Counted from the stretch's first letter, positions 39,402 through 62,048 are shown. The stretch: 64,000 nt of DNA from an uncultured Acidobacteriota bacterium (GCA_963847655.1 CAWKAS010000003.1:75350-139349), one strand, 5' to 3'. Numbers and translations: made by a program. Notes: a model not told the origin generated them from the letters alone.

Positions 39402-40787
39402 CTACCCGATCTCGTAGCGCTTCATCTTGCGCCAGAGGGTGTTGCGAGAGACGCCCAGGTCCCCGGCCGCCTTCGTGCGGTTCCCCCCGTGGCGGTCGAG
39501 GGCCTCGCGAATGGCGACGGCCTCGGCGTTCTGCAGGGGCCCGAGACCTTCCCTTTCGGCCCCCGGCTCCGCGGCCTGCGCCGCCGGGGTGACGCGCTGA
39601 CCCAGCACGTGGGGCGGGAGGTCCTCGCGCTCGATGACGTTGCCCCCGCAGACCACGAAGGCGTGCTCGATGGCGTTCTCGAGCTCGCGCACGTTCCCGG
39701 GGTAGTCGTAGTGCATCAGGGCCGCCATCGCCCGCTCGGAGACCCCGGTGATGCGCCTTCCCTGGCTGGCATTGAACCTCTTGATGAAGTGGTCGACCAG
39801 GAGAGGGACGTCCTCGAGCCGTGCCCGCAGGGGGGGAAGGTTGACTCGGATCACGTTGAGACGAAAGAACAGGTCCTGGCGAAATCGCCCGTGCCCCACC
39901 TCCGCCGCCAGGTCCTTGTTGGTGGCGGCGAGGATGCGGACGTCGGCCTTCTCGGAGCGGACGGCCCCGAGAGGCGTGTACTCCCGCTCCTGGAGGACGC
40001 GGAGGAGCTTGACCTGCATCGCCGGTGAGATCTCCGCGATCTCGTCGAGGAAGAGCGTGCCTCCTTCGGCGAGAGCGAAGCGGCCAGGCTTGTCGCGACG
40101 CGCGTCGGTGAAGGCCCCCTTCCGGTAGCCGAACAGCTCCGACTCCGCCAGGCTGTCGGGCAGGGCCCCGCAGTTGACGGCCACGAACGGCCTGTCCCGG
40201 CGGGCTCCCAGGTTGTGGATGGCCCGGGCCACCAGCTCCTTCCCGGTGCCCTGCTCCCCCTCGATGAGGGCGGTGCTGCTCGAGCGGGCCACGAGGCGGA
40301 CCAGCTCCCGGACCCCCTGCATCCCCGGGCTCTTGGTGACGATGTCGTCGCTCGTGTAGCTGCCGTGGATCTGGCGGCGCAGCTCGGCCAGCATGGACAG
40401 GTCGCGGAACATCTCCACCCCGCCCACCACCCGGCCCTCGCGGTCCTCCAGGTGAGCGGTGCTCACGGAGACCAGGACCTCGCGACCGTCCCGGGTGCGG
40501 ATCGTCACCTCCTCGTCGCGGTGCTCCTCTCCCCCGGCGATGCTCTTCCGAAGGAAGCAGGTGTGCTCGCAGTGCGTGGCCCGGAAGACCCGGGCGCAGA
40601 GGCTGCCGATCACCTCGTCGCGGCTCCATCCCGTGATCCGCTCGGCCGCGCGGTTGAAGGAGGTGATCAGGCCCTGCTGGTCGACGGTGAAGATGCCGTC
40701 CGGGATGTTGTCGAAGATGATCGACCCGATGCGGGGGTCGAGGTGGCTCGGCATTGGGCGCTGCTCCTGTTCCATTGTACCCCCCAT
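39402..40787 (-). CDS. Sigma-54-dependent transcriptional activator (bEBP) with an N-terminal Cys-containing PAS domain and no receiver domain
   Basis: PAS region (FDNIPDGIFTVDQQGLITSFNRAAERITGW). AAA+ domain with GEQGTGKE, ESELFGYRKGAFTDA (a GAFTGA variant) and GTLFLDEI. C-terminal Fis-type HTH (AAGDLGVSRNTLWRKMK). The start is at 40787 or 40775. Confidence 0.92.
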   Translation of the reverse strand: MGGTMEQEQRPMPSHLDPRIGSIIFDNIPDGIFTVDQQGLITSFNRAAERITGWSRDEVIGSLCARVFRATHCEHTCFLRKSIAGGEEHRDEEVTIRTRDGREVLVSVSTAHLEDREGRVVGGVEMFRDLSMLAELRRQIHGSYTSDDIVTKSPGMQGVRELVRLVARSSSTALIEGEQGTGKELVARAIHNLGARRDRPFVAVNCGALPDSLAESELFGYRKGAFTDARRDKPGRFALAEGGTLFLDEIAEISPAMQVKLLRVLQEREYTPLGAVRSEKADVRILAATNKDLAAEVGHGRFRQDLFFRLNVIRVNLPPLRARLEDVPLLVDHFIKRFNASQGRRITGVSERAMAALMHYDYPGNVRELENAIEHAFVVCGGNVIEREDLPPHVLGQRVTPAAQAAEPGAEREGLGPLQNAEAVAIREALDRHGGNRTKAAGDLGVSRNTLWRKMKRYEIG

Positions 40788-40924: not shown

Positions 40925-40940
40925 GGGCACGTTTCTCGCC
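40925..40940 (+). promoter_or_regulatory. Candidate sigma-54 (-24/-12) promoter of the redox-module operon
   Basis: gGGCACgtttcTCGCc compared with the consensus TGGCAC-N5-TTGC. The GG and GC dinucleotides have the canonical 12-nt register. It lies about 52 nt upstream of the ATG at 40992 and faces away from the divergent bEBP gene. Confidence 0.5.
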
Positions 40941-43090: not shown

Positions 43091-43908
43091 GCACGAACAC
43101 CGCACGCACCCGCTCCTTCGCGATCCTGACCGACGTCACCCTCTGCATCGGCTGCGAGGAATGCGTCGCCGCGTGCAAGAAGACCAACGACACCGGCGAG
43201 GACGACGCCCCCTGGAAGTGGCAGGGGGGGGCCGAAGACCTCAGCTCCACCCGGTGGACGACGATCGCGCGCACCCGTGGCCGGTACGTTCGGGTCCAGT
43301 GCCGCCACTGCCTGGACCCCGCCTGCGCCGCCGCCTGCCCGGTGGCCGCGCTCTACACCACCGAGTCCGGTGCGGTAGCCTACAACCCCGACATCTGCAT
43401 GGGGTGCCGCTACTGCATGGTGGCGTGCCCGTTCCGCATGACCCGGTACGAGTGGGACTCCCCGATCCCCCGGGTCCGCAAGTGCATCCTCTGCTACCAG
43501 GCTCTCACCAGCGGTGAGCTCAGCCAGCCCGCGTGCACCGCCGCCTGCCCCACGAAGGCCACGATCTTCGGGACGCGGGACGCGCTCCTGGCCGAGGCCC
43601 GCCGCCGCATCGAGGCCGCCCCCGACCGCTACGTCCACCACATCTGGGGCGAGCACGAGGTCGGGGGCACGTCCGTGCTCTACATCTCCGACGTCGAGCT
43701 CACCGCCGCGGCCTGGCCCGAGGGGCTTCCCGGCCACCCGGTGCCCGAGCTCGCCACGGACGTCCTGAGCACCGTGCCCGCCACCTTCCTGACCGTGGGC
43801 GCGGCGATGGCCGGGTTCCACTGGATCGTGGGGAGGAGGGACAAGCTGGCGGCCGAGGCGGCCACCCCCCCGCCCCCCGAGGCCTCCGACGACGAGGTGA
43901 GCTCGTGA
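43087..43908 (+). CDS. HybA/DsrO/HmcB/PsrB-like four-cluster ferredoxin subunit with a C-terminal TM helix and no recognisable signal peptide
   Basis: ATGA overlap with the previous gene. CIGCEECVAAC, CRHCLDPACAAACP, CMGCRYCMVACP and CILC...CTAACP. C-terminal helix TVPATFLTVGAAMAGFHWIVG followed by RRDK. Confidence 0.88.
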   Translation: MSTNTARTRSFAILTDVTLCIGCEECVAACKKTNDTGEDDAPWKWQGGAEDLSSTRWTTIARTRGRYVRVQCRHCLDPACAAACPVAALYTTESGAVAYNPDICMGCRYCMVACPFRMTRYEWDSPIPRVRKCILCYQALTSGELSQPACTAACPTKATIFGTRDALLAEARRRIEAAPDRYVHHIWGEHEVGGTSVLYISDVELTAAAWPEGLPGHPVPELATDVLSTVPATFLTVGAAMAGFHWIVGRRDKLAAEAATPPPPEASDDEVSS

Positions 43909-45929
43909 CGCCCGCCCAGAACCCCCGCCTGATCGTGACCAAGGCCGTCCTCTGGTTCCTCGTCGGCGTGGCCGCGGTGGTGGCCGTGGTGCGCTTCGCC
44001 CTCGGGCTCGGCCTCACCACCGACCTGACCGACGCGACCCCGTGGGGCATGTGGGTCGGCTTCGACGTCCTGGGCGGGGTGGCCCTGGCCGCCGGCGGCT
44101 TCGTGGTCGCCGCCACCGTCTACATCTTCCGGCGCGAGCGCTACCACGTCATCATCCGGCCCGCCATCCTCACCGCCTTCCTCGGCTACCTGGCGGTGAT
44201 CATCGGCCTGATGGTCGACCTCGGCCGGCCCTGGAACATCTGGCGCCCGATGTTCCACTGGAACCTGCACTCGCCGTTGTTCGAGGTGGCGATGTGCGTG
44301 ATTCTCTACACCACGGTGCTCGCCCTGGAGTTCGCGCCGGTGGTCCTCGAGCGCTTCGCCTGGGCGGTGCCCGCGATCCGCCTCCTGCGGCGGGTGACGC
44401 TGCCCCTGGTCGTGGTGGGCATCGCGCTGTCGACGCTGCACCAGTCGTCGCTCGGCACCCTGTTCCTCCTCTCCGGGGCGCGGATGCACCCGCTGTGGTT
44501 CTCTCCCCTCCTGCCCCTGCTCTTCCTCGTCTCGGCGGTGGGACTGGGCCTCGGGATGGTCACCGTGGAGAGCCTGGTGACCTCCTGGCTCTACCGGCGG
44601 GAGGCGGAGTGGGACCTCCTCCGCGGCCTCGCGCGCGCCGCCACCGTGGTCCTCTCCTTCTACCTCCTCGTCCGCCTGGGAGACCTGGCGTGGCGGGGCG
44701 AGATCGGGCGGGCCTTCGACGGCTCGTGGTTCGCCGTCCTCTTCTGGGTGGAGATGGGGATGAGCACCCTCGCCCCGGTGGCTCTCTTCCTTCGTGCCCG
44801 CCGGGGCGACGGGCGGTGGGCCATCACCTGGGGCGCGTTCCTCATGACCGCCGGCTTCGTCCTCCACCGGGCCGACGTCGGCGGCATCTCCCACATCGCG
44901 GTGACCGGACAGGTCTACGTCCCCGCCGCCACCGAGGTCGCGGTGAGCCTGGGCATCGTCTCCGGGCTGGCGCTCATCTTCCTGTTCTTCGTGGAGAACC
45001 TGAAGGTCTGGGAGGAGCCCCCCCCGGCGACCGACCACTTCACCCCCGCCGCCACGGACCCCGTGAGCTCCCAGTACATCGGCTCGCCGTGGCTCGGAGG
45101 GGGACAGCGCGCCGCCCTCGCGCTCATCTGCGGGGTGGTCGTGGGCCTCGCCCTCGTCGAGGCCCAGGTCGAGAGGCGGCGGCCGAGCGCGGCCCGCCCC
45201 ATCCACCCCCCCCGCAGCGCCGCGGCCCTGGTCACCCCCGGGGCGGACGGGAAGGGGCACGTCTTCGAGGTCGTCTCCCCGACGGCGCCGGAGGCGATGA
45301 CGGAGGCCGTCGCCCGGGGCGGCGTCCTCCAGGACGCCCTCCTGATCGACAGCGGGGGCGAGGGGCGCCTCGTCCTGTTCCCTCACGCCGCCCACCAGCG
45401 CCGGCTCGGGGGCGAGGCCTCGTGCGCCACGTGCCACCACCGCAACGTCCCCCTGGACCGGGCGACCTCCTGCTCCCACTGCCACCGCGACATGTACCGA
45501 CCGACCGACACCTTCGACCACGCCCGGCACGTGGTCGCCCTCGACCAGAGCCTCTCGTGCACGGTGTGTCACCGGGACCGAGAGGCCGCACGGACCCGCG
45601 CCGGGTCCCGGCCCTGCGCCAGCTGCCACCAGGGGACGCCGTCCCACCTGACGCGGGTGCGGGTCACCGGCGAGGCCGAGCCGGGCCTCGCCCCCGGCTA
45701 CGAGAAGGCGATGCACGGGCTGTGTCTGGGCTGCCACCGCGAGGAGGAGAGGGACCTCGCGGTCGCCGACCGCTCCCTGAGCCGCTGCACGAACTGCCAC
45801 CGCGGTGAGTTCGCCTCCGACGCCGCCATGCGCCAGCGGCCGCCGTTCGCGGTCGTCGCCACCGCCGCCCCCGCGGCCCCGGGCGCGGTGACGAACGGGA
45901 CCGGCAGCACCACGGGGGGATCACCGTGA
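43905..45929 (+). CDS. NrfD/PsrC/DsrP/HmcC-like polytopic membrane subunit fused to a C-terminal multihaem cytochrome c domain (6 CXXCH)
   Basis: GTGA overlap with the previous gene. An NrfD-like core of about 430 aa (WGMWVGFDVLGG..., LHQSSLG...) and one extra TM segment (AALALICGVVVGLALV). Then FPHAAHQ...CATCH, CSHCH, CTVCH, CASCH, CLGCH and CTNCH. Confidence 0.88.
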   Translation: MTPAQNPRLIVTKAVLWFLVGVAAVVAVVRFALGLGLTTDLTDATPWGMWVGFDVLGGVALAAGGFVVAATVYIFRRERYHVIIRPAILTAFLGYLAVIIGLMVDLGRPWNIWRPMFHWNLHSPLFEVAMCVILYTTVLALEFAPVVLERFAWAVPAIRLLRRVTLPLVVVGIALSTLHQSSLGTLFLLSGARMHPLWFSPLLPLLFLVSAVGLGLGMVTVESLVTSWLYRREAEWDLLRGLARAATVVLSFYLLVRLGDLAWRGEIGRAFDGSWFAVLFWVEMGMSTLAPVALFLRARRGDGRWAITWGAFLMTAGFVLHRADVGGISHIAVTGQVYVPAATEVAVSLGIVSGLALIFLFFVENLKVWEEPPPATDHFTPAATDPVSSQYIGSPWLGGGQRAALALICGVVVGLALVEAQVERRRPSAARPIHPPRSAAALVTPGADGKGHVFEVVSPTAPEAMTEAVARGGVLQDALLIDSGGEGRLVLFPHAAHQRRLGGEASCATCHHRNVPLDRATSCSHCHRDMYRPTDTFDHARHVVALDQSLSCTVCHRDREAARTRAGSRPCASCHQGTPSHLTRVRVTGEAEPGLAPGYEKAMHGLCLGCHREEERDLAVADRSLSRCTNCHRGEFASDAAMRQRPPFAVVATAAPAAPGAVTNGTGSTTGGSP

Positions 45930-47764
45930 GCGGCCCGTGCTGGCCCGTCTCCCGGGCCCAGGAGCTCTTCGAGGAGATGCCCTCGGGGATCATGGTCATG
46001 GATCGCGAGTTCAGGATCGTGGACCACAACCGGGCGTTCGTGGACGTCTACGGTCCGAACGTCGGGACCCCCTGCTACCAGGTCTACAAGGATCGCGGGA
46101 CCCCGTGCCCCGACTGCCCGGCCCAGGCGACGTTCGAGGACGGGCGGCCCCGGGTCCTCGAGGAGACCGGGCTCGACCGCAACGGCCAGACGATCCACTA
46201 CCTGGCCCGCGTGGTGCCGCTGCGCGACGAGACCGGGGGGATCACCCACGTGGCGGCGATCACCACCGACCTGACCGCGACGAAGAGGCTGCAGCGCGAG
46301 TACCAGACCCTGTTCGAGAAGGTGCCGTGCTACGTGGCGGTGCTGAACCAGGACCGCCGGGTCATCAAGGCCAACGAGATGTTCCGGCGGACCTTCGGGG
46401 AGCCCCGGGGCGACTTCTGCTACAAGCTGTTCAAGGGGCGCCGCACCGAGTGCGAGGACTGCCCGGCGGACAAGACCTTCGTGGACGGCCGCTCCCACAC
46501 CTCCCGGCACGTCGGACAGAACCGCGACGGGGGCGAGACGCACTACGTGGTGTCCACCGCGCCCCTCCTCCAGGGAGACGGGGAGACCACCCACGTCATC
46601 GAGATGGCCCTCGACATCACCGAGATGACCGCGCTCGAGACCCAGCTCCAGAACGCCCACGTCTTCCGCCAGGCCCTGGTCGAGAACTCCCTCGAGGCCG
46701 TCGTGGTCATCGACGAGTCCCAGCGGGTGGTGCTGATGAACAAGGCGGCGGAGGATCTCTGGGGCGCCCGCCGCGAAAGCCTGGTCGGCCACAAGGCCCC
46801 GCGGGCCCTGGTCCCGGCCGCCCTGCGGCGCCAGCGCGCGCACACCGGCGCGACCGTCCTGCTCCCCGACACCACGATCACGAACCTGGCCGGCGAGACC
46901 ATCCCGGTGGAGCTCGCGGGCATGACCATCTTCAGCGAGGGTCGCTACCTGGGCGGCGCGGTCAAGGCCCTCGACCTGAGGGCCACGAAGGAGCTCGAGC
47001 GCGAGAAGCTCACCGCCGAGCGGCTGGCCGCCGTGGGTCAGACGGTGGCGGGGCTGGCGCACGGCATCAAGAACGTGCTCATGGGCCTCGAGGGCGGCAT
47101 GTACGCGTTCCAGAGCGGCATGAAGAAGGGCGACGACGCGCGAATGCTCCAGGGCTGGCAGATGCTCGAGGAGAACATCAACCGGATCACCACATTCGTG
47201 AAGGAGTTCCTCGAGTTCGCCCGGGGCCGGACCCCGACGGTGCACCTCATCGATCCCAACGAGGTGGCGGGAAAGGTCGTGGACCTCTTCAAGGACAAGG
47301 CGGAGCAGGCGGGCATCCGACTGGGCTTCGAGCCCCAGGCCGGGATCCCCCCGGCCTTCATGGACGAGGAGGGGATCCACACCTGCCTCGTCAACCTGGT
47401 CTCGAACGCCCTCGACGCCTGCGAGACCTCGGAGAGGGCGGACCCCGAGGTGGTCGTGCGCACCCGCGACCACGCCGGGGCGCTTCTGCTGGAGGTGGCG
47501 GACACCGGCACCGGGATCGACTCCGAGATCCGCAAGAAGGTCTTCACGACCTTCTTCAGCACCAAGGGCTCGGGCAAGGGGACCGGTCTCGGCCTGCTCA
47601 CCACCCGGAAGATCGTCCAGCAGCACGGCGGCAAGGTGTGGTTCGAGTCGACGCCGGGCACCGGCTCCGTCTTCCGGCTGGAGTTCCCCCACGATCGGCT
47701 GCCCCACCCGCGCGAGACGGAAGACGCCCTTTCAAGCACAGGAGACGAGGATGGCACGGCCTGA
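45926..47764 (+). CDS. Cytoplasmic multi-PAS sensor histidine kinase; two PAS domains carry C-x10-C-x2-C motifs
   Basis: GTGA overlap with the cytochrome gene. No TM segment. Three PAS-like modules. H-box AGLAHGIKNVL. N, G1 and G2 boxes (LVSNALDA, DTGTGID, GKGTGLGL). Confidence 0.9.
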   Translation: MSGPCWPVSRAQELFEEMPSGIMVMDREFRIVDHNRAFVDVYGPNVGTPCYQVYKDRGTPCPDCPAQATFEDGRPRVLEETGLDRNGQTIHYLARVVPLRDETGGITHVAAITTDLTATKRLQREYQTLFEKVPCYVAVLNQDRRVIKANEMFRRTFGEPRGDFCYKLFKGRRTECEDCPADKTFVDGRSHTSRHVGQNRDGGETHYVVSTAPLLQGDGETTHVIEMALDITEMTALETQLQNAHVFRQALVENSLEAVVVIDESQRVVLMNKAAEDLWGARRESLVGHKAPRALVPAALRRQRAHTGATVLLPDTTITNLAGETIPVELAGMTIFSEGRYLGGAVKALDLRATKELEREKLTAERLAAVGQTVAGLAHGIKNVLMGLEGGMYAFQSGMKKGDDARMLQGWQMLEENINRITTFVKEFLEFARGRTPTVHLIDPNEVAGKVVDLFKDKAEQAGIRLGFEPQAGIPPAFMDEEGIHTCLVNLVSNALDACETSERADPEVVVRTRDHAGALLLEVADTGTGIDSEIRKKVFTTFFSTKGSGKGTGLGLLTTRKIVQQHGGKVWFESTPGTGSVFRLEFPHDRLPHPRETEDALSSTGDEDGTA

Positions 47765-48299
47765 GGACAAGACCATTCTGGTCGTGGACGACGAGCCCAA
47801 CGTCCGCGACTACCTGAAGATGATCCTGGTGGACGCCGGGTTCCGGGTGGCGACCGCGGCCGATGGGGAGGAGGCTCTCGCGCGCATCCGCGAGAGCCGT
47901 CCCGACTTCATCTCCCTCGACCTGATCATGCCCCGCAAGTCGGGGCACAAGCTGCTCCTCGAGCTCAAGCGGGACCGCGACCTGAGCCGCATCCCGGTCC
48001 TGGTGGTGACCGCTCACGCCCACGACGAGTTCGGCAGCAAGGACCTCGAGGAGATCCTGGACGGCGCGGTGATGTCGGGACCGGGGACCTACCTCGAGAA
48101 GCCGATCAACCCCGAGTCGTACGTCCGGGCGATCTCGCGTGCGGTGGGGGTCGAGCCCGCGCCGCGGAGCACCCCCCGGACCGACCTCAAGGAAGAGCTG
48201 GAGCACAGCATCCAGGGCGCGAGCCCCGAGGCCCTGCGCGAGGCCCTCGCGGCCCTGCGCCGGGCGAAGACGAAAGGAGCGCACAAAGGTGACGGATAG
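47751..48299 (+). CDS. Stand-alone response-regulator receiver protein with a C-terminal tail of about 60 aa
   Basis: ILVVDDEP...FISLDLIMPRKSG...PVLVVTAH...EKP. It overlaps the kinase gene by 14 nt. Confidence 0.88.
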   Translation: MARPEDKTILVVDDEPNVRDYLKMILVDAGFRVATAADGEEALARIRESRPDFISLDLIMPRKSGHKLLLELKRDRDLSRIPVLVVTAHAHDEFGSKDLEEILDGAVMSGPGTYLEKPINPESYVRAISRAVGVEPAPRSTPRTDLKEELEHSIQGASPEALREALAALRRAKTKGAHKGDG

Positions 48300-48717
48300 A
48301 GGCGATCGGCAGACGGTCCTGGTCGTGGACGACGAGCCCCACGTGGTGGCCTACCTGGAGATGCTCCTCCAGGACCAGGGCTACGCGACGGTGTCGGCGG
48401 CCAACGGCCGCGAGGGGATGGAGAAGGCAAAGGCGCACACGCCCGACCTCATCTGCCTGGACATCACCATGCCCGAGGAGTCGGGGGTCCGTATGTACCG
48501 CAACCTGAAGGAGGACCCGCGTCTGGCGAGCATCCCGGTACTGGTGGTGACCGCGGTCACGGGCCTCGGAGGCGACCCGGAGCCCTTCCGGCACTTCCTG
48601 GACACCCGGAAGAGCGTCCCCGCGCCCGAGGGCTTCTTCTCCAAGCCCATCGAGCGCGAGCAGTTTCTGGCGAAGGTCGACGAGATCCTGGCGAAGCCTG
48701 TCGCGCCGTCCTCCTGA
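48289..48717 (+). CDS. Stand-alone response-regulator receiver protein
   Basis: The GTG start overlaps the previous gene by 11 nt. VLVVDDEP...LICLDITMPEESG...PVLVVTAV...SKP. Confidence 0.85.
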   Translation: MTDRGDRQTVLVVDDEPHVVAYLEMLLQDQGYATVSAANGREGMEKAKAHTPDLICLDITMPEESGVRMYRNLKEDPRLASIPVLVVTAVTGLGGDPEPFRHFLDTRKSVPAPEGFFSKPIEREQFLAKVDEILAKPVAPSS

Positions 48718-58444: not shown

Positions 58445-58918
58445 TCAACGCGACCGGCGCCACCGCCGCCCGCCGGATTCGGGCTCCTCGTCCTCCTCCG
58501 CGGACGGCTGCGCCAGCACATCCAGGTAGGCGAGGAGGGCGGTGATCTCGGACTCGGCCAACGTGCGTCCCCACGGGGGGCACAGGGCCGAGCGACCGAG
58601 AGCGACCGTTCCCCCCTCGATCACCCGCCGCCGGTCGTCGGGGGGCATCTCCCCCAGCGACTCCCGGAAGTCGGGGGGCGGGGGCTGGAGGTTGAAGGCG
58701 TTCTGCCCGTCGCCACGTCCCTCGGGCCCGTGGCAGGTCGCGCAACGCTGGACGAAGACGCGACGCCCCTCGGCCTCGCGTGTGCTCAGCTCCCCCTCGC
58801 GGAAGGCCTCCTGCACGGCGTTGACGGGCGGGTCCTTCGGGGCCGGTCGGCAGCCAACGGCGAGGGCGAGCAAGAGGCCGGCGACGGCGGCCCCCCGACC
58901 CTTCGACGGACGTCTCAC
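58445..58918 (-). CDS. Monohaem class-I c-type cytochrome lipoprotein with Cys at the expected sixth-ligand position
   Basis: GTGA overlap with the upstream gene. LLLALAVGC lipobox and CATCH haem site. ALCPPWG occurs where class-I cytochromes usually have MPxWG or MPxFG. Confidence 0.8.
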   Translation of the reverse strand: MRRPSKGRGAAVAGLLLALAVGCRPAPKDPPVNAVQEAFREGELSTREAEGRRVFVQRCATCHGPEGRGDGQNAFNLQPPPPDFRESLGEMPPDDRRRVIEGGTVALGRSALCPPWGRTLAESEITALLAYLDVLAQPSAEEDEEPESGGRRWRRSR

Positions 58919-60909
58919 GGGACCGCCCTCCCCTGGCGGGCGGGGATGCTGAGGGTGTAGGCGGTGAGGGCCTCGGCCTCCTCGCGGCTCAGGCCATGGT
59001 CCGGTTGCAGGGTGCCGGGCTTCCACCGTTCCGGGTCCAGGAGCCACTCGACCGTCCACCCCGGTTGGAGGCGCGCCCCGCTGCCGTTGAGGTCCGGCCC
59101 CACGAAGCCGCCGCCGTCCCCCACGATGTGGCACCCCTGGCACCCGTGACGGTCGAACAGCTCGCGGCCCCGGGCCACCGTGGCTGCGTCCGTGGGGACG
59201 CTCGCGTGCAGGGCATCGTCGACCATGACCCTCGAGAGGTAGTCGGCGAGGACGCGCGCCTCGTCCGGGGCGATGTTCAGGTGCGGCATCCGCTCCGCGA
59301 GACCCACCCGCACCGCGATCGGCTTCTGGACGTACTGCTCGATGTAGTCCCGCTGCAGCTGGCTCCCGATCCGATCCAGGACCACCGTCGAGAGGGTCCC
59401 GCCGGTTCCCTGGATCTGGTGACACGAGAGACACCGGTACCGGCGCACCAGCGCCCCGAACTCCCCCTGCGGCTCGTAGAGCGGCCGCTCCGGGTCCCGT
59501 GTGGCGTGGTCCGGGGGCACGGGATCGCGCCGCAGGCTCAGGAGGGCCACCGCCACCGCCGCCGCCTCGTGCTCGGTGAAGCCGAAGGTCGGCATACGGG
59601 CGGTGTCGAGCACCCGCTCCGGCCTGCTCACCTTGGTGAAGAGCCAGTTCGGCAGCGTGGGCTCGACCCCTCGCGCCACGAGCGGTGTCGGGTCGAGGAT
59701 GAGGTCCCCCACCCCCGCGAGCTTCGGACCGATGCGCGGGCGCTCCGGGAAGCCCTCCAGGCCGTGACAGGAGTAGCATCCGCGGCGCTCGTAGATCCGC
59801 CGTCCCTCCGCGGCCAGGGTCGGGGAGGGAGGGGCATCCTGGGCGGCCAGCCCCTTCGGCTCTCCGAGCTCCTCCGAGAGATAGGCGGCGAGATCGCGGA
59901 CCTCGTCGCCGGTGAAGCGGAAACGGGGCATGAGCGTGTCCGGCTGCAGCCGGTGGGGGTCCCGGATCCAGGAGTAGAGCCAGTCCCGCGAGGCCTTGGC
60001 CCCCACGTGCCCGAGCTCGGGTGCCAGCGTGCCGCCGCGACCGTTCACCGAGTGGCAGGTCACGCAGCGGGCGGCGCGGAACAGCTCTCCCCCGCGCTCC
60101 GCGTCCGCCTCTCCCCATTCCACCGCCTCGTGCACGGCGGCCCCGTGGGGCTCGAGCAGGAACGCGGTCAACGCCTCGACCTCGTCCGGCTTCAGGCGGA
60201 AGTTGCCCATGCGCGAGCGGTCGAGGTACTCGCGCGGATCGGCGAGCCAGCCGCGGAGCCAGGCCGGGGAGACCTTCTGCGACAGGCCGTCCAGACGCGG
60301 AGCGCGCACCTCGGACTCGAGGTGTCCCGGCACCTCGTGGCAGGCCACGCAGTTCCGGTCGCTCATGAGGGCCCGCCCGCGCGCCAGCCAGTAGGTGTCC
60401 GGGGGCCGGCGCTCCTGGTGACAGGCACCGCAGCGTGCCTCCATCAGCTCCCGCGAGGCCATGGGCTCGGGCCAGAACGGCAACGGCTCGTGAGCGGCGT
60501 GCCGGTAGTCCGTGGCCTCCCCCTGCCCTCCGTGGCACGAGGTGCAGCCGAAGCGGTCGGGACGGTGGGTGTCGAGCCAGCTCCCGCTGTGCGTGCGGAA
60601 GGGCTGAGACGACCCCACCCTCGCCGGATCCGCGATCCCGAGGTGGCAGCTCGTGCAGCGGTCGACCCGGTCCAGGTCCTTCAGCCAGATCTGCTGGAGT
60701 CCCGTCTCGGCCTCCGCGCCCTCCAGCGCCGCGAAGCGCGACTGCCACTGCCGCCATTCCGCCCGGCTCTCCTTCAGCACCGCGCCCACCACCACCACCA
60801 CCAGCGCGAGCGAGAGGAGGCCGAAGGCCCACAGCAGCCCGACCGGAACGCGGCGCGACAGCCCCCGCCGCCGGGGCCCTTCGCCGCGACCGGGCGTCAC
60901 GACGCCCAC
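58915..60909 (-). CDS. Membrane-anchored octahaem c-type cytochrome (3 N-terminal haems plus 5 class-I-like modules)
   Basis: N-terminal TM segment [55 protein letters not shown] and CQGCH. Five repeats of an M(P/G)xF...E(v/a).AL.AYL module. Confidence 0.88.
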
Positions 60910-62048
60910 GGCCAGACCCAGGCCCAGTTGGGACCACGGAAGAAGGTCCCGACGATCGTCAGCGCGACCACGGCCAGGGCCAGGAGCCCGAACACCACGT
61001 TGGCCCTGCGTCGCTCACGCGCAAACCAGACCCCCACCCCGCCTCCCCGGTGGTCCACGTAGGGCAGCGCGAGCAGGCCGAGGATCATGGCCGTGGGGAT
61101 CACGACCCCGCCGAACAGGGCCCCGTAGTGGACGAGCTCCTGCAGGCCCAGGAAGTACCAGGGAGCCTTGGCCGGGTTCGGGGTCCGGGCCGCGTCGGCG
61201 ATCTCCTCGAGGGGCGCGTCGACGAGGAGCGCGGCGGCGTGAACGACGACGACCACGAGGAGCAGGACCACCAGCTCGCGGAACAGCAGGTGAGGCCAGG
61301 TCGGGGCCCGGCGCATCGGGCCCGGAGGAGCGGCGAGCCCCCCATCCTTGCGCACCCGCCAGAAGTGCAGGCTGATGAGGAAGCCCATCGCCAGGGGCAG
61401 GACGAGGCAGTGGAGGACGTAGAAGCGGAGCAGCGCCGCCTGCCCGATCTCGTGGCCGCCGAGGAGCAGGTAGCGCACCCGCTCCCCCACGAAGGGAAAG
61501 TAGGCCGCGATGCTGGTGCCGACGGTGATGGCCCAGAACGCGAGCTGGTCCCACGGAAGAAGGTACCCGGTGAAGGACAAGGCGAGGGTCAGGAGAAGAA
61601 GGACGACCCCCACCACCCAGTTGAACTCGCGAGGACGCTTGTACGATCCCGTGAAGAAGACCCGGCACATGTGAAGGAAGACGACCGCCACCATTCCGTG
61701 GGCGGCCCAGCGGTGGGCGTTGCGCAGGAACATCCCGAAGGTCACCGCGAACTGGATGTCCTTCATGCTCCGGTAGGCGGCCTCGGTGTGGGGGACGTAG
61801 TAGAGCATCAGGGCCAGACCGGTGACGGTCAGGATCCCGAACAGGTAGAAGCTGATCAGCCCCAGACCCAGGGTGGACTTGAACCTCAGGGCGTGGACGC
61901 GCACCCGTGTGGGGTGGACGTGCAGCACGAGGCTGGAGAGCAGGGTGGCCAGGCGCTGCTGCCGCGTGCGCGGCCACCCGATGCGGAAGACGGAGCGGTA
62001 GACGCGGCGCCAGGTCCGATGCAGCCGCTCCCGGGCGTCGTCGCTCAT
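60897..62048 (-). CDS. Cytochrome b (unsplit b6 plus subunit-IV-like) of a Rieske/cyt b complex
   Basis: Haem ligands H112/H126 (H-x13-H) and H213/H228 (H-x14-H). [10 protein letters not shown]. The Qo-site motif reads APWY (61155-61166). ATGA overlap with the Rieske gene. Confidence 0.9.

Follow-up and report, generated by a model that had tools for sequence, protein, structure and literature searches.

A conserved NrfD–hexahaem cytochrome c fusion protein from an uncultured Acidobacteriota bacterium, encoded in a probable Hmc/DsrMKJOP-like gene cassette

The window analysed here is a stretch of 64,000 nt from an uncultured Acidobacteriota bacterium (GCA_963847655.1 CAWKAS010000003.1:75350-139349). 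At 43905..45929 on the + strand it carries a gene for a 674-aa protein in which an NrfD-type membrane domain is followed by an extra transmembrane (TM) helix and a six-haem cytochrome c domain. It stands last in a run of four overlapping genes, which encode in order an HdrD/DsrK-like iron-sulphur (FeS) protein, a NarI-like cytochrome b, a ferredoxin and the fusion protein. We conclude that the fusion gene encodes a genuine single polypeptide and that the four-gene cassette probably specifies a transmembrane redox complex of the Hmc/DsrMKJOP type, in which the cytochrome, in the role of DsrJ or HmcA, is tethered to the NrfD subunit. An earlier note on this DNA had proposed the fusion and had pointed out that NrfD-like subunits and multihaem cytochromes are separate polypeptides in the complexes characterised so far. 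This agrees with the review of the family, in which NrfD-like subunits are defined as cofactor-free proteins with 8-10 TM helices and no fusion is mentioned (PMC8076601).

The fusion gene is a single stop-free open reading frame (ORF). Its GTG start codon overlaps the stop codon of the upstream FeS gene (GTGA) and is preceded by GAGG ~8 nt upstream, and its own stop codon overlaps the GTG of a downstream kinase gene (again GTGA), the overlaps with neighbouring genes being 1-4 nt. The G+C content in the + frame is 0.91 at third (GC3) and 0.55 at second (GC2) codon positions, which is the signature of a real gene in DNA of ~70% G+C. A long ORF on the opposite strand over the fusion gene is a high-GC shadow. 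The six CXXCH motifs were found where the earlier note had listed them, at aa 507, 523, 552, 571, 607 and 628, with starts at nt 45423, 45471, 45558, 45615, 45723 and 45786 (45423..45800 overall). When the protein was shuffled 200,000 times, 99% of the shuffled sequences had no CXXCH and none had more than 3. All six frames of the window hold 15 CXXCH in total, of which 6 are in the fusion gene, 8 in a cytochrome gene at 58915..60909 and 1 in another frame nearby. Together, the shuffles and the window-wide count place the six motifs beyond chance. Searches of the fusion protein against Pfam gave NrfD at aa 45-322 (78.9 bits; cutoff 25.8), Cytochrom_CIII (42.8 bits; cutoff 22.9) and Cytochrome_C7 (above threshold).

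The fusion is widely conserved. A search of 5.8 billion proteins returned >110 protein clusters of 640-700 aa with the same Pfam architecture, which are 51-89% identical to the fusion protein over 93-100% of the query. The architecture is common in metagenomes. The NrfD part was also used to scan one genome per GTDB species. At least 595 relatives were obtained and the best 80 loci (handles beginning with L) were analysed, so that the counts given below for loci are lower bounds. A continuous ORF with NrfD and six CXXCH was present in ~50 of these best 80 loci, all from independent assemblies, a few of which have five CXXCH and a CX4CH variant, or seven CXXCH. The claim of a single polypeptide therefore stands on both the clusters and the loci. 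Carriers of the fused ORF are labelled Acidobacteriota, Thermoanaerobaculia, Gemmatimonadota, Planctomycetota, Zixibacteria, Ignavibacteria/Melioribacteraceae, Eisenbacteria and Fibrobacteria, and every carrier found is a metagenome-assembled genome (MAG). The nearest relative among the best 80 loci is L012 (86%), from an Acidobacteriota MAG.

An alignment of 113 full-length homologues (51-89% identity) revealed that all six CXXCH motifs are invariant, as are six free histidines of the haem domain, H494, H497, H512, H539, H542 and H604. The number of haem motifs is six in 97 of the homologues and seven in the other 16, in which the seventh CXXCH lies in an insertion between haems 4 and 5 (for example in P0072, P0080, P0120 and L005). 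In L006, L009 and P0093 the fourth haem motif is a CX4CH (CDAPACH). Searching 1.84 billion representatives with the C-terminal 285 aa of the fusion protein gave 235 representatives at E <1e-10. The full-length matches carry the haem domain at ~aa 400-660 of proteins of 600-670 aa. A clear stand-alone haem domain was not found among 10 shorter matches examined; most of these begin inside the NrfD domain or helix 11 and, from their sequences, look like 5'-truncated fusions. The haem domain thus appears to occur essentially only in attachment to NrfD.

These data bear directly on the alternative that two adjacent genes, nrfD and one for a membrane-anchored cytochrome c, wrongly appear as one because of an indel from sequencing or assembly or because a stop codon was missed. 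Errors of this kind do occur in comparable data, since three loci from long-read MAGs (L012, L052 and L053) have homologous genes that are frameshifted throughout the cassette, most likely owing to long-read assembly errors rather than because they are pseudogenes. However, these frameshifts break the ORF and do not create it. The continuous ORF recurs in independent assemblies from at least eight phyla, the clusters share its length as well as its architecture, the shorter matches gave no clear separate cytochrome domain, and the linker between the two parts is itself conserved in sequence (VWEEPP and PW(L/F)G). We consider the probability of such an artefact to be practically negligible.

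The membrane part of the protein belongs to the NrfD/PsrC family (PF03916), as indicated by a score above the curated threshold, the helix layout in an AlphaFold2 (AF2) model and the fold matches of that model. A first AF2 run with 19 sequences gave a predicted local distance difference test (pLDDT) score of 62 for the haem domain, which was too weak, and the run with 113 sequences was used instead (mean pLDDT 82.7; predicted template modelling score, pTM, 0.77). In this model ten TM helices lie within aa 7-365, before the extra helix. The NrfD core thus comprises ~367 aa rather than the ~430 aa of the earlier note, a figure that had taken in the linker and helix 11. The best solved match found by Foldseek was ActC of alternative complex III (E = 4e-7; template modelling score normalised to the target 0.54-0.63), followed by ActF and PsrC. 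A PDB sequence search with the NrfD domain alone gave no match, and matches came from the fold search alone. Among NCBIfam models, the NrfD part scored highest with HybB (NF008133; 295 bits, more exactly 294.7; equivalog cutoff 450) and HmcC (267 bits; cutoff 550), and far lower with DsrP (25 bits; cutoff 350). It is 34% identical to E. coli HybB.

NrfD-family proteins have an eight-TM core of two four-helix bundles, to which a ten-helix subgroup adds two flanking helices; HybB-type members cross the membrane with 10 TM helices, their two termini lie on the N-side, and their quinone site is near the periplasmic side (PMC8076601). Replacement of R89, Y99, E148 or H184 in HybB impairs hydrogen oxidation (Lubek 2019, as cited in PMC8076601). 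These residues align to R85, Y95, E142 and H179 of the fusion protein, and all four are invariant in the 113 homologues, so the NrfD domain looks functional on the evidence of its sequence. The most conserved NrfD motifs, DLGRPWNIW, LHQSSLGTLF and HPLW, are in periplasmic loops and are common to HybB. The six conserved CXXCH motifs, on the other hand, set the polypeptide apart from the family's definition as free of redox cofactors. The fusion protein is therefore a member of the NrfD family by sequence and fold, yet it breaks the no-cofactor rule at the level of the polypeptide, while its membrane domain itself looks cofactor-free.

The NrfD domain is connected to the rest of the protein by a linker, in which AF2 confidence is lower (~aa 366-398), and by an 11th TM helix that AF2 models with high confidence at aa 399-425 (pLDDT 94-97). 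The hydrophobic core of this helix, aa 403-418 of the fusion protein, is AALALICGVVVGLALV. Helix 11 is present in all homologues, G410 in it is invariant and E419 is nearly so. In the predicted loops, the mean number of lysines and arginines (K+R) is 12.6 on the cytoplasmic and 4.9 on the periplasmic side. This inequality holds in 113/113 sequences, suggesting that the N-terminus is cytoplasmic. With ten TM helices and an N-in charge bias, helix 11 would put the haem domain in the periplasm. The haem domain is accordingly predicted to be periplasmic from charge and helix count, on the opposite face from the C-terminus of the NrfD domain as the earlier note had argued, and the ten-helix alignment with HybB fits the same layout. 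The 20 residues after helix 11, in contrast, are arginine-rich (mean 3.3 K+R), which points to the opposite side of the membrane for what follows, although the positive-inside rule is weak for long exported domains. Haem c is attached only outside the cytoplasm, and for this reason the fusion should fix the orientation of the NrfD domain from sequence alone.

Helix 11 might instead act as an internal signal peptide, with the fusion protein being cut after it (LVEA/Q) into a soluble periplasmic hexahaem cytochrome and an ordinary NrfD protein of 10-11 helices. The residues after helix 11 in the window protein (V-E-A/Q) do fit the -3/-1 rule, and the glutamate at the helix boundary is nearly invariant. 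However, several sampled homologues have V, L, I or T at -1 (LEVTT, MEIQV, LELTA, LETTT), residues that do not suit signal peptidase I, and cleavage is unlikely because this position is not kept small. The hydrophobic stretch of at least 16-17 residues within a 27-residue helix also exceeds that of typical cleaved signals, and the confident AF2 helix is modelled as a TM helix. We regard cleavage at this site as quite improbable.

The predicted periplasmic part begins with a small beta-rich subdomain, followed by the six-haem domain (Table 1). FPHAAHQ at aa 492-498 resembles the N-terminal motif of c7 and c3 cytochromes. The six invariant free histidines are enough for bis-histidine (bis-His) ligation of six haems and, from their conservation, are likely to be the distal ligands; all six haems are probably bis-His. 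No conserved free cysteine is present in the haem domain. A family profile matched HmcA (2e84), cytochrome c3 (2bq4) and the nine-haem cytochrome (19hc) in the PDB, which bears out the c3/c7-like fold put forward in the earlier note, and weak NCBIfam matches to a c7-type trihaem domain were also obtained. Residues 474-575 align with the whole of a tetrahaem c3 and residues 551-632 with a segment of HmcA, suggesting that the haem domain consists of a c3-type tetrahaem module to which two haems are added, and so amounts to a small HmcA. With a Pfam score above threshold and invariant bis-His histidines in FPHAAHQ and later in the domain, it belongs to the class III cytochromes c (PF02085). The C-terminal tail, over which pLDDT drops from ~60 to <50 (aa 650-674), is probably disordered according to the model.

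The neighbouring genes are conserved along with the fusion gene. The order HdrD-like, NarI-like, ferredoxin, fusion is kept in ~50 loci detected by tblastn, and the kinase is next in most of them. When NrfD domains were compared in a neighbour-joining tree (no support values), the hexahaem fusions grouped as a single clade, apart from unfused NrfD proteins that have no HdrD/NarI neighbours. The HdrD-like protein matches the NCBIfam models DsrK (272 bits; cutoff 400), TmcB (212 bits) and HmcF (210 bits; cutoff 750), and its [4Fe-4S] and CCG cysteines are invariant in 53 sequences. The NarI-like protein, whose ATG overlaps the upstream stop codon by 1 nt, matches TmcC (89 bits) and HmcE (84 bits; cutoff 275), and a PDB sequence search with it gave no match. 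Its histidines H78, H91, H177 and H195 are invariant in 55 sequences and are enough for two bis-His haems b. The ferredoxin matches HmcB (233 bits; cutoff 420), HybA (198 bits) and DsrO (93 bits; cutoff 200). It aligns to mature E. coli HybA with 37% identity and keeps all 16 cysteines, which are invariant in the cassette homologues, while the 26-aa signal is missing. Several loci, from Gemmatimonadota and others, have a second HdrD-like gene, 31-35% identical to the cassette copy, at no more than 7 kb from the cassette (L005, L013, L024, L033, L035, L038, L039, L042, L043 and L054). In L035 (11422..13976, +) it is paired with a NarI-like gene in a DsrMK/HdrED-type module.

From homology and gene order we infer one four-protein complex, together with its electron path, direction and type of substrate. 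In the cryo-electron microscopy structure of DsrMKJOP from Archaeoglobus fulgidus, menadiol occupies a site in DsrP that lies towards the periplasm, at <8 Å from one of the DsrO clusters; DsrO is in contact with DsrJ, DsrJ with DsrM on its periplasmic face, and DsrM with cytoplasmic DsrK (bioRxiv 10.64898/2026.08.25.746951). In the cassette, the CCG FeS protein would correspond to DsrK/HmcF, the dihaem b protein to DsrM/HmcE and the ferredoxin to DsrO/HmcB, and the NrfD quinone module (DsrP/HmcC) and the multihaem cytochrome c (DsrJ/HmcA) would be the two that are fused. By analogy with DsrMKJOP, quinol or quinone would react at a periplasm-side pocket of the NrfD domain, and electrons would pass from NrfD through the ferredoxin clusters to the tethered haems c, on to the two haems b, across the membrane and to the CCG subunit, which would reduce or oxidise a cytoplasmic substrate of the thiol/disulfide type. 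The complex could work in either direction, with electrons from the periplasm or from quinol going to a cytoplasmic acceptor of the disulfide type or the opposite way, and electron exchange between the haem domain and carriers in the periplasm is a further possibility. Helix 11 would replace the signal anchor of a separate cytochrome and would fix a 1:1 stoichiometry.

Compared with DsrMKJOP, the cassette has the same five modules K, M, O, P and J, the electron path is probably the same, and DsrK is the best NCBIfam match of the CCG subunit. In contrast to DsrMKJOP, P and J are joined in a single chain here, the cytochrome is a hexahaem c3-like domain whereas DsrJ is a trihaem protein with one His/Cys haem, and the NrfD and ferredoxin parts score far higher against HybB/HmcC/HmcB than against DsrP and DsrO. 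The Hmc complex (HmcABCDEF) of Desulfovibrio/Nitratidesulfovibrio vulgaris resembles the cassette in that homologues of HmcB, HmcC, HmcE and HmcF are encoded together, in that HmcA and cytochrome c3 are the best solved relatives of the haem domain, and in that a tail anchor, which has been described for HmcB, is found in the ferredoxin. It differs in haem number (16 in HmcA compared to 6 here) and in gene order (A-B-C-D-E-F compared to F-E-B-C here), and here the haem domain is fused to the HmcC-type part via the extra TM helix and the ferredoxin is without a twin-arginine translocation (Tat) signal. The HmcA model gives 28-33 bits on the fusion protein (cutoff 400), no separate 16-haem cytochrome is encoded in the cassette, and the overlaps between the genes leave no room for an HmcD gene. 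Overall, the description that fits the cassette best is that of an Hmc/DsrMKJOP-like complex whose cytochrome is reduced and fused.

Other known systems resemble parts of the cassette. Among characterised sequences, HybB of E. coli hydrogenase 2 comes closest to the NrfD domain, in which its functional residues are kept, and HybA shares with the ferredoxin the 16 cysteines and a tail anchor. However, HybA has its own Tat signal, HybB has neither an 11th helix nor haems, and no hydrogenase genes were found among the annotated genes flanking the cassette in the window. Nor was a dsr gene found among the annotated genes of the window; its genes beyond the cassette are unrelated (PEP carboxylase, a major facilitator superfamily transporter, MscL and a GH65 enzyme). 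In alternative complex III, ActA is a multihaem cytochrome that sits on a single TM helix beside the NrfD-like subunits. ActC of this complex, the closest solved fold, likewise spans the membrane with 10 TM helices and has its two ends on the N-side (PMC8076601). Unlike the cassette, alternative complex III has ActA as a separate polypeptide, a second NrfD-like subunit, ActF, and the molybdopterin-like ActB, and it is without NarI-like and HdrD-like subunits. CbcL of Geobacter, by the same design logic as the fusion protein, unites in a single chain a membrane domain that interacts with quinone and a multihaem cytochrome c in the periplasm, but its membrane domain is a dihaem b domain of the HydC/FdnI type, its haem count is different, and it has no ferredoxin or CCG partners.

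A second type of fusion was found in L055, L060, L061, L064 and L066, in which NrfD and an extra TM helix are joined to one c7-type trihaem module (~520-545 aa), and L069 (616 aa) has two such modules; in most of the six loci the NrfD match begins at ~7001. These proteins share with the hexahaem fusions the extra TM helix, the periplasmic multihaem domain and a signal-less ferredoxin gene 5' of the fusion, but NarI/HdrD genes are not beside them. In the neighbour-joining tree they fall outside the hexahaem clade and among unfused NrfD proteins, suggesting that they probably arose by an independent fusion.

Such pairs of ferredoxin and NrfD genes without HdrD/NarI genes, whether unfused or fused to c7-type modules (L055-L080), are consistent with the alternative that the cassette encodes two machines. 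The ferredoxin and the fusion protein would then form a self-sufficient quinol:periplasmic-acceptor or cytochrome:quinone oxidoreductase, following the logic of Nhc/Qrc or CbcL, and the HdrD-like and NarI-like proteins would be a co-regulated quinol:disulfide reductase of the DsrMK/HdrED type. A stand-alone NarI-like and HdrD-like pair does exist a few kb from the cassette in L035, and the DsrMK proteins of other organisms likely oxidise menaquinol themselves, as one statement in the DsrMKJOP preprint has it (bioRxiv 10.64898/2026.08.25.746951). In the hexahaem clade, however, the four genes are adjacent, overlapping and in the same order across phyla, and this clade is separate in the tree from the NrfD proteins that lack HdrD/NarI neighbours. 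Moreover, it is the cytochrome c that bridges the ferredoxin and the b-haem subunit in DsrMKJOP. We therefore consider two machines unlikely, and a single complex of the Hmc/DsrMKJOP type the probable product of the cassette.

Several points weigh against a complex of this type. The NCBIfam matches of all four cassette proteins are below the equivalog cutoffs, so that none of them is a true HmcB, HmcC, HmcE or HmcF or a true DsrK, DsrM, DsrO or DsrP. The case for complex formation is one of gene order only. Most of the host phyla are not known sulfate reducers, and the DsrC-type substrate of Hmc and Dsr may thus not apply. The AF2 model of the fusion protein contains no haems. Finally, a Tat signal on the ferredoxin was found in no locus of the fused family, and no Tat-signal partner for it is encoded in or near the cassette, where one was looked for.

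The ferredoxin is nevertheless predicted to be periplasmic. In its tail anchor, K+R averages 4.2 in the 12 residues after the TM helix compared to 1.35 before it, and the positive patch follows the helix in 48/51 loci and is never reversed. Together with the conserved periplasmic-loop motifs of the NrfD domain, this orientation makes the ferredoxin look periplasmic. The ferredoxin starts at the position of the mature HybA N-terminus, and an in-frame stop lies just 5' of the start codon in several loci. Ferredoxin relatives in Chloroflexi (L065, L071 and L076) keep the Tat motif RRDFLK, and signal-less ferredoxins are also encoded 5' of unfused NrfD genes in Geothrix and other Holophagae. Signal-less ferredoxin genes were seen in the window and in L001-L054, L063 and L073-L075. 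Tail-anchored ferredoxins without a signal are thought to be exported by hitchhiking on a partner with a Tat signal (Tat paper). Possible solutions to the puzzle are a partner encoded elsewhere, a novel export route or a cytoplasmic ferredoxin, the last of which would change the electron path.

If the ferredoxin were cytoplasmic, the complex would have a new topology, with the ferredoxin wired to the HdrD-like subunit and the haem domain as the direct partner of the periplasm-side quinone site. This would account for the lack of both a Tat signal and a Tat partner across the fused family, and a covalently tethered cytochrome could in principle stand in for a docked ferredoxin. However, the tail anchor keeps the orientation of HybA, the most conserved NrfD motifs are periplasmic and common to HybB, which docks the periplasmic HybA, and export of signal-less ferredoxins by hitchhiking is known (Tat paper). 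We judge a cytoplasmic ferredoxin to be unlikely and favour the periplasmic placement that an Hmc/DsrMKJOP-type path would use.

Table 1. Features of the cassette, the fusion protein and the adjoining regulatory genes (window positions).
Feature	Position	Strand	Basis and remarks
Sigma-54-dependent activator (PAS, AAA+, helix-turn-helix)	39402..40775, start approximate	-	Translation; divergent from operon
Weak candidate -24/-12 sigma-54 promoter, GGGCACGTTTCTCGCC	40925..40940	+	~50 nt 5' of first gene
HdrD/DsrK-like cytoplasmic FeS protein, 467 aa	40992..42395	+	Two [4Fe-4S] motifs, one CCG domain; Pfam CCG, Fer4_8
NarI/TmcC/HmcE-like membrane cytochrome b, 231 aa	42395..43090	+	Pfam Nitrate_red_gam
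HybA/HmcB-like ferredoxin, 273 aa	43087..43908	+	Four [4Fe-4S] clusters, C-terminal TM anchor, no Tat signal
Fusion: NrfD domain, aa 1-367	43905..45005	+	Ten TM helices, HybB/HmcC type; Pfam, NCBIfam, AF2
Fusion: cytoplasmic linker, aa 368-398	45006..45098	+	Acidic, proline-rich, ends in conserved PW(L/F)G; alignments
Fusion: 11th TM helix, aa 399-425, hydrophobic core aa 403-418	45099..45179	+	Hydropathy, AF2, conservation
Fusion: small beta-rich subdomain, predicted periplasmic, aa 437-492	45213..45380	+	AF2 strands 437-445, 452-457, 474-482, 489-492
Fusion: six-haem c3/HmcA-like domain, aa 492-640	45378..45824	+	Motifs, alignment, PDB profile matches
Fusion: C-terminal tail and stop codon	45825..45929	+	Poorly conserved, unaligned in homologues
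Cytoplasmic histidine kinase, several PAS domains	45926..47764	+	Pfam; translationally coupled to fusion gene (GTGA)
Single-domain response regulator	47751..48299	+	Pfam Response_reg
Second single-domain response regulator	48289..48717, start approximate	+	Response_reg from aa 60 of listed ORF (begins 48139)

The cassette is flanked by regulatory genes (Table 1). Homologues of the sigma-54-dependent activator adjoin the cassette in most related loci, either divergently or upstream on the same strand, and a homologue of the kinase is directly 3' of the fusion gene in most loci. The order kinase, receiver, receiver is also found in L035. The PAS domain of the activator contains C-x9-C-x3-C, and two PAS domains of the kinase carry C-x11/12-C-x2-C (TPCYQVYKDRGTPCPDCP and DFCYKLFKGRRTECEDCP). 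These cysteine motifs could make the PAS domains of both proteins metal- or FeS-based redox sensors. Clear TGGCAC-N5-TTGC sites are present upstream in L006, L009, L034 and L049; a loose sigma-54 pattern was found in 12/49 loci only, and the strict pattern is not enriched in the window. A scan of the operon for sigma-70 promoters and terminators gave nothing above background. In L063 (8084..9604, +; Geothrix fuzhouensis), the kinase that follows an unfused ferredoxin-NrfD pair has CYVCH in its N-terminal, apparently periplasmic, part, which may be a haem c sensor domain.

The sole other cytochrome c gene in the window, at 58915..60909 (-), encodes a 664-aa protein with eight CXXCH, comprising a c3/c7-like N-terminal part and three class I domains. 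It is directly 3' of, and overlaps, a cytochrome b/b6 gene at 60897..62048 (-), which suggests that the gene pair 58915..62048 encodes a bc-type complex that includes a multihaem subunit.

In the searchable literature, a fusion of NrfD to a multihaem cytochrome was not found to be described, although an earlier mention may exist. The "DsrOhPh-tetrahaem" locus of cable bacteria consists of separate genes, and papers on MBNT15, Melioribacter and Planctomycetota likewise describe separate genes. In public databases the fusion proteins are named "Ni/Fe-hydrogenase cytochrome b subunit" or "molybdoenzyme membrane anchor". These names hide the cytochrome and would mislead metabolic reconstruction of MAGs from soil and sediment.

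A conserved and widespread NrfD chain with six haems means that an NrfD module can be hard-wired to its cytochrome, and, with only four genes, the Hmc/Dsr-like complex of the cassette would be a compact subject for biochemical work. The signal-less, seemingly periplasmic ferredoxin poses a separate question of Tat export, which is wider than the fused family. What the CCG subunits of Hmc and Tmc do is still uncertain, and the complex as it occurs in organisms that do not reduce sulfate could help to identify other substrates of CCG subunits. As a tentative proposal, which we think possible but on balance doubtful, the cassette may represent a widespread uncharacterised class of respiratory complex in mostly non-sulfate-reducing phyla, with the fusion and the signal-less ferredoxin marking a distinct assembly route or topology and with a substrate other than DsrC for the DsrK-like subunit. 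If true, it would connect the quinone pool, electron carriers of the periplasm and thiol chemistry in the cytoplasm in a new way.

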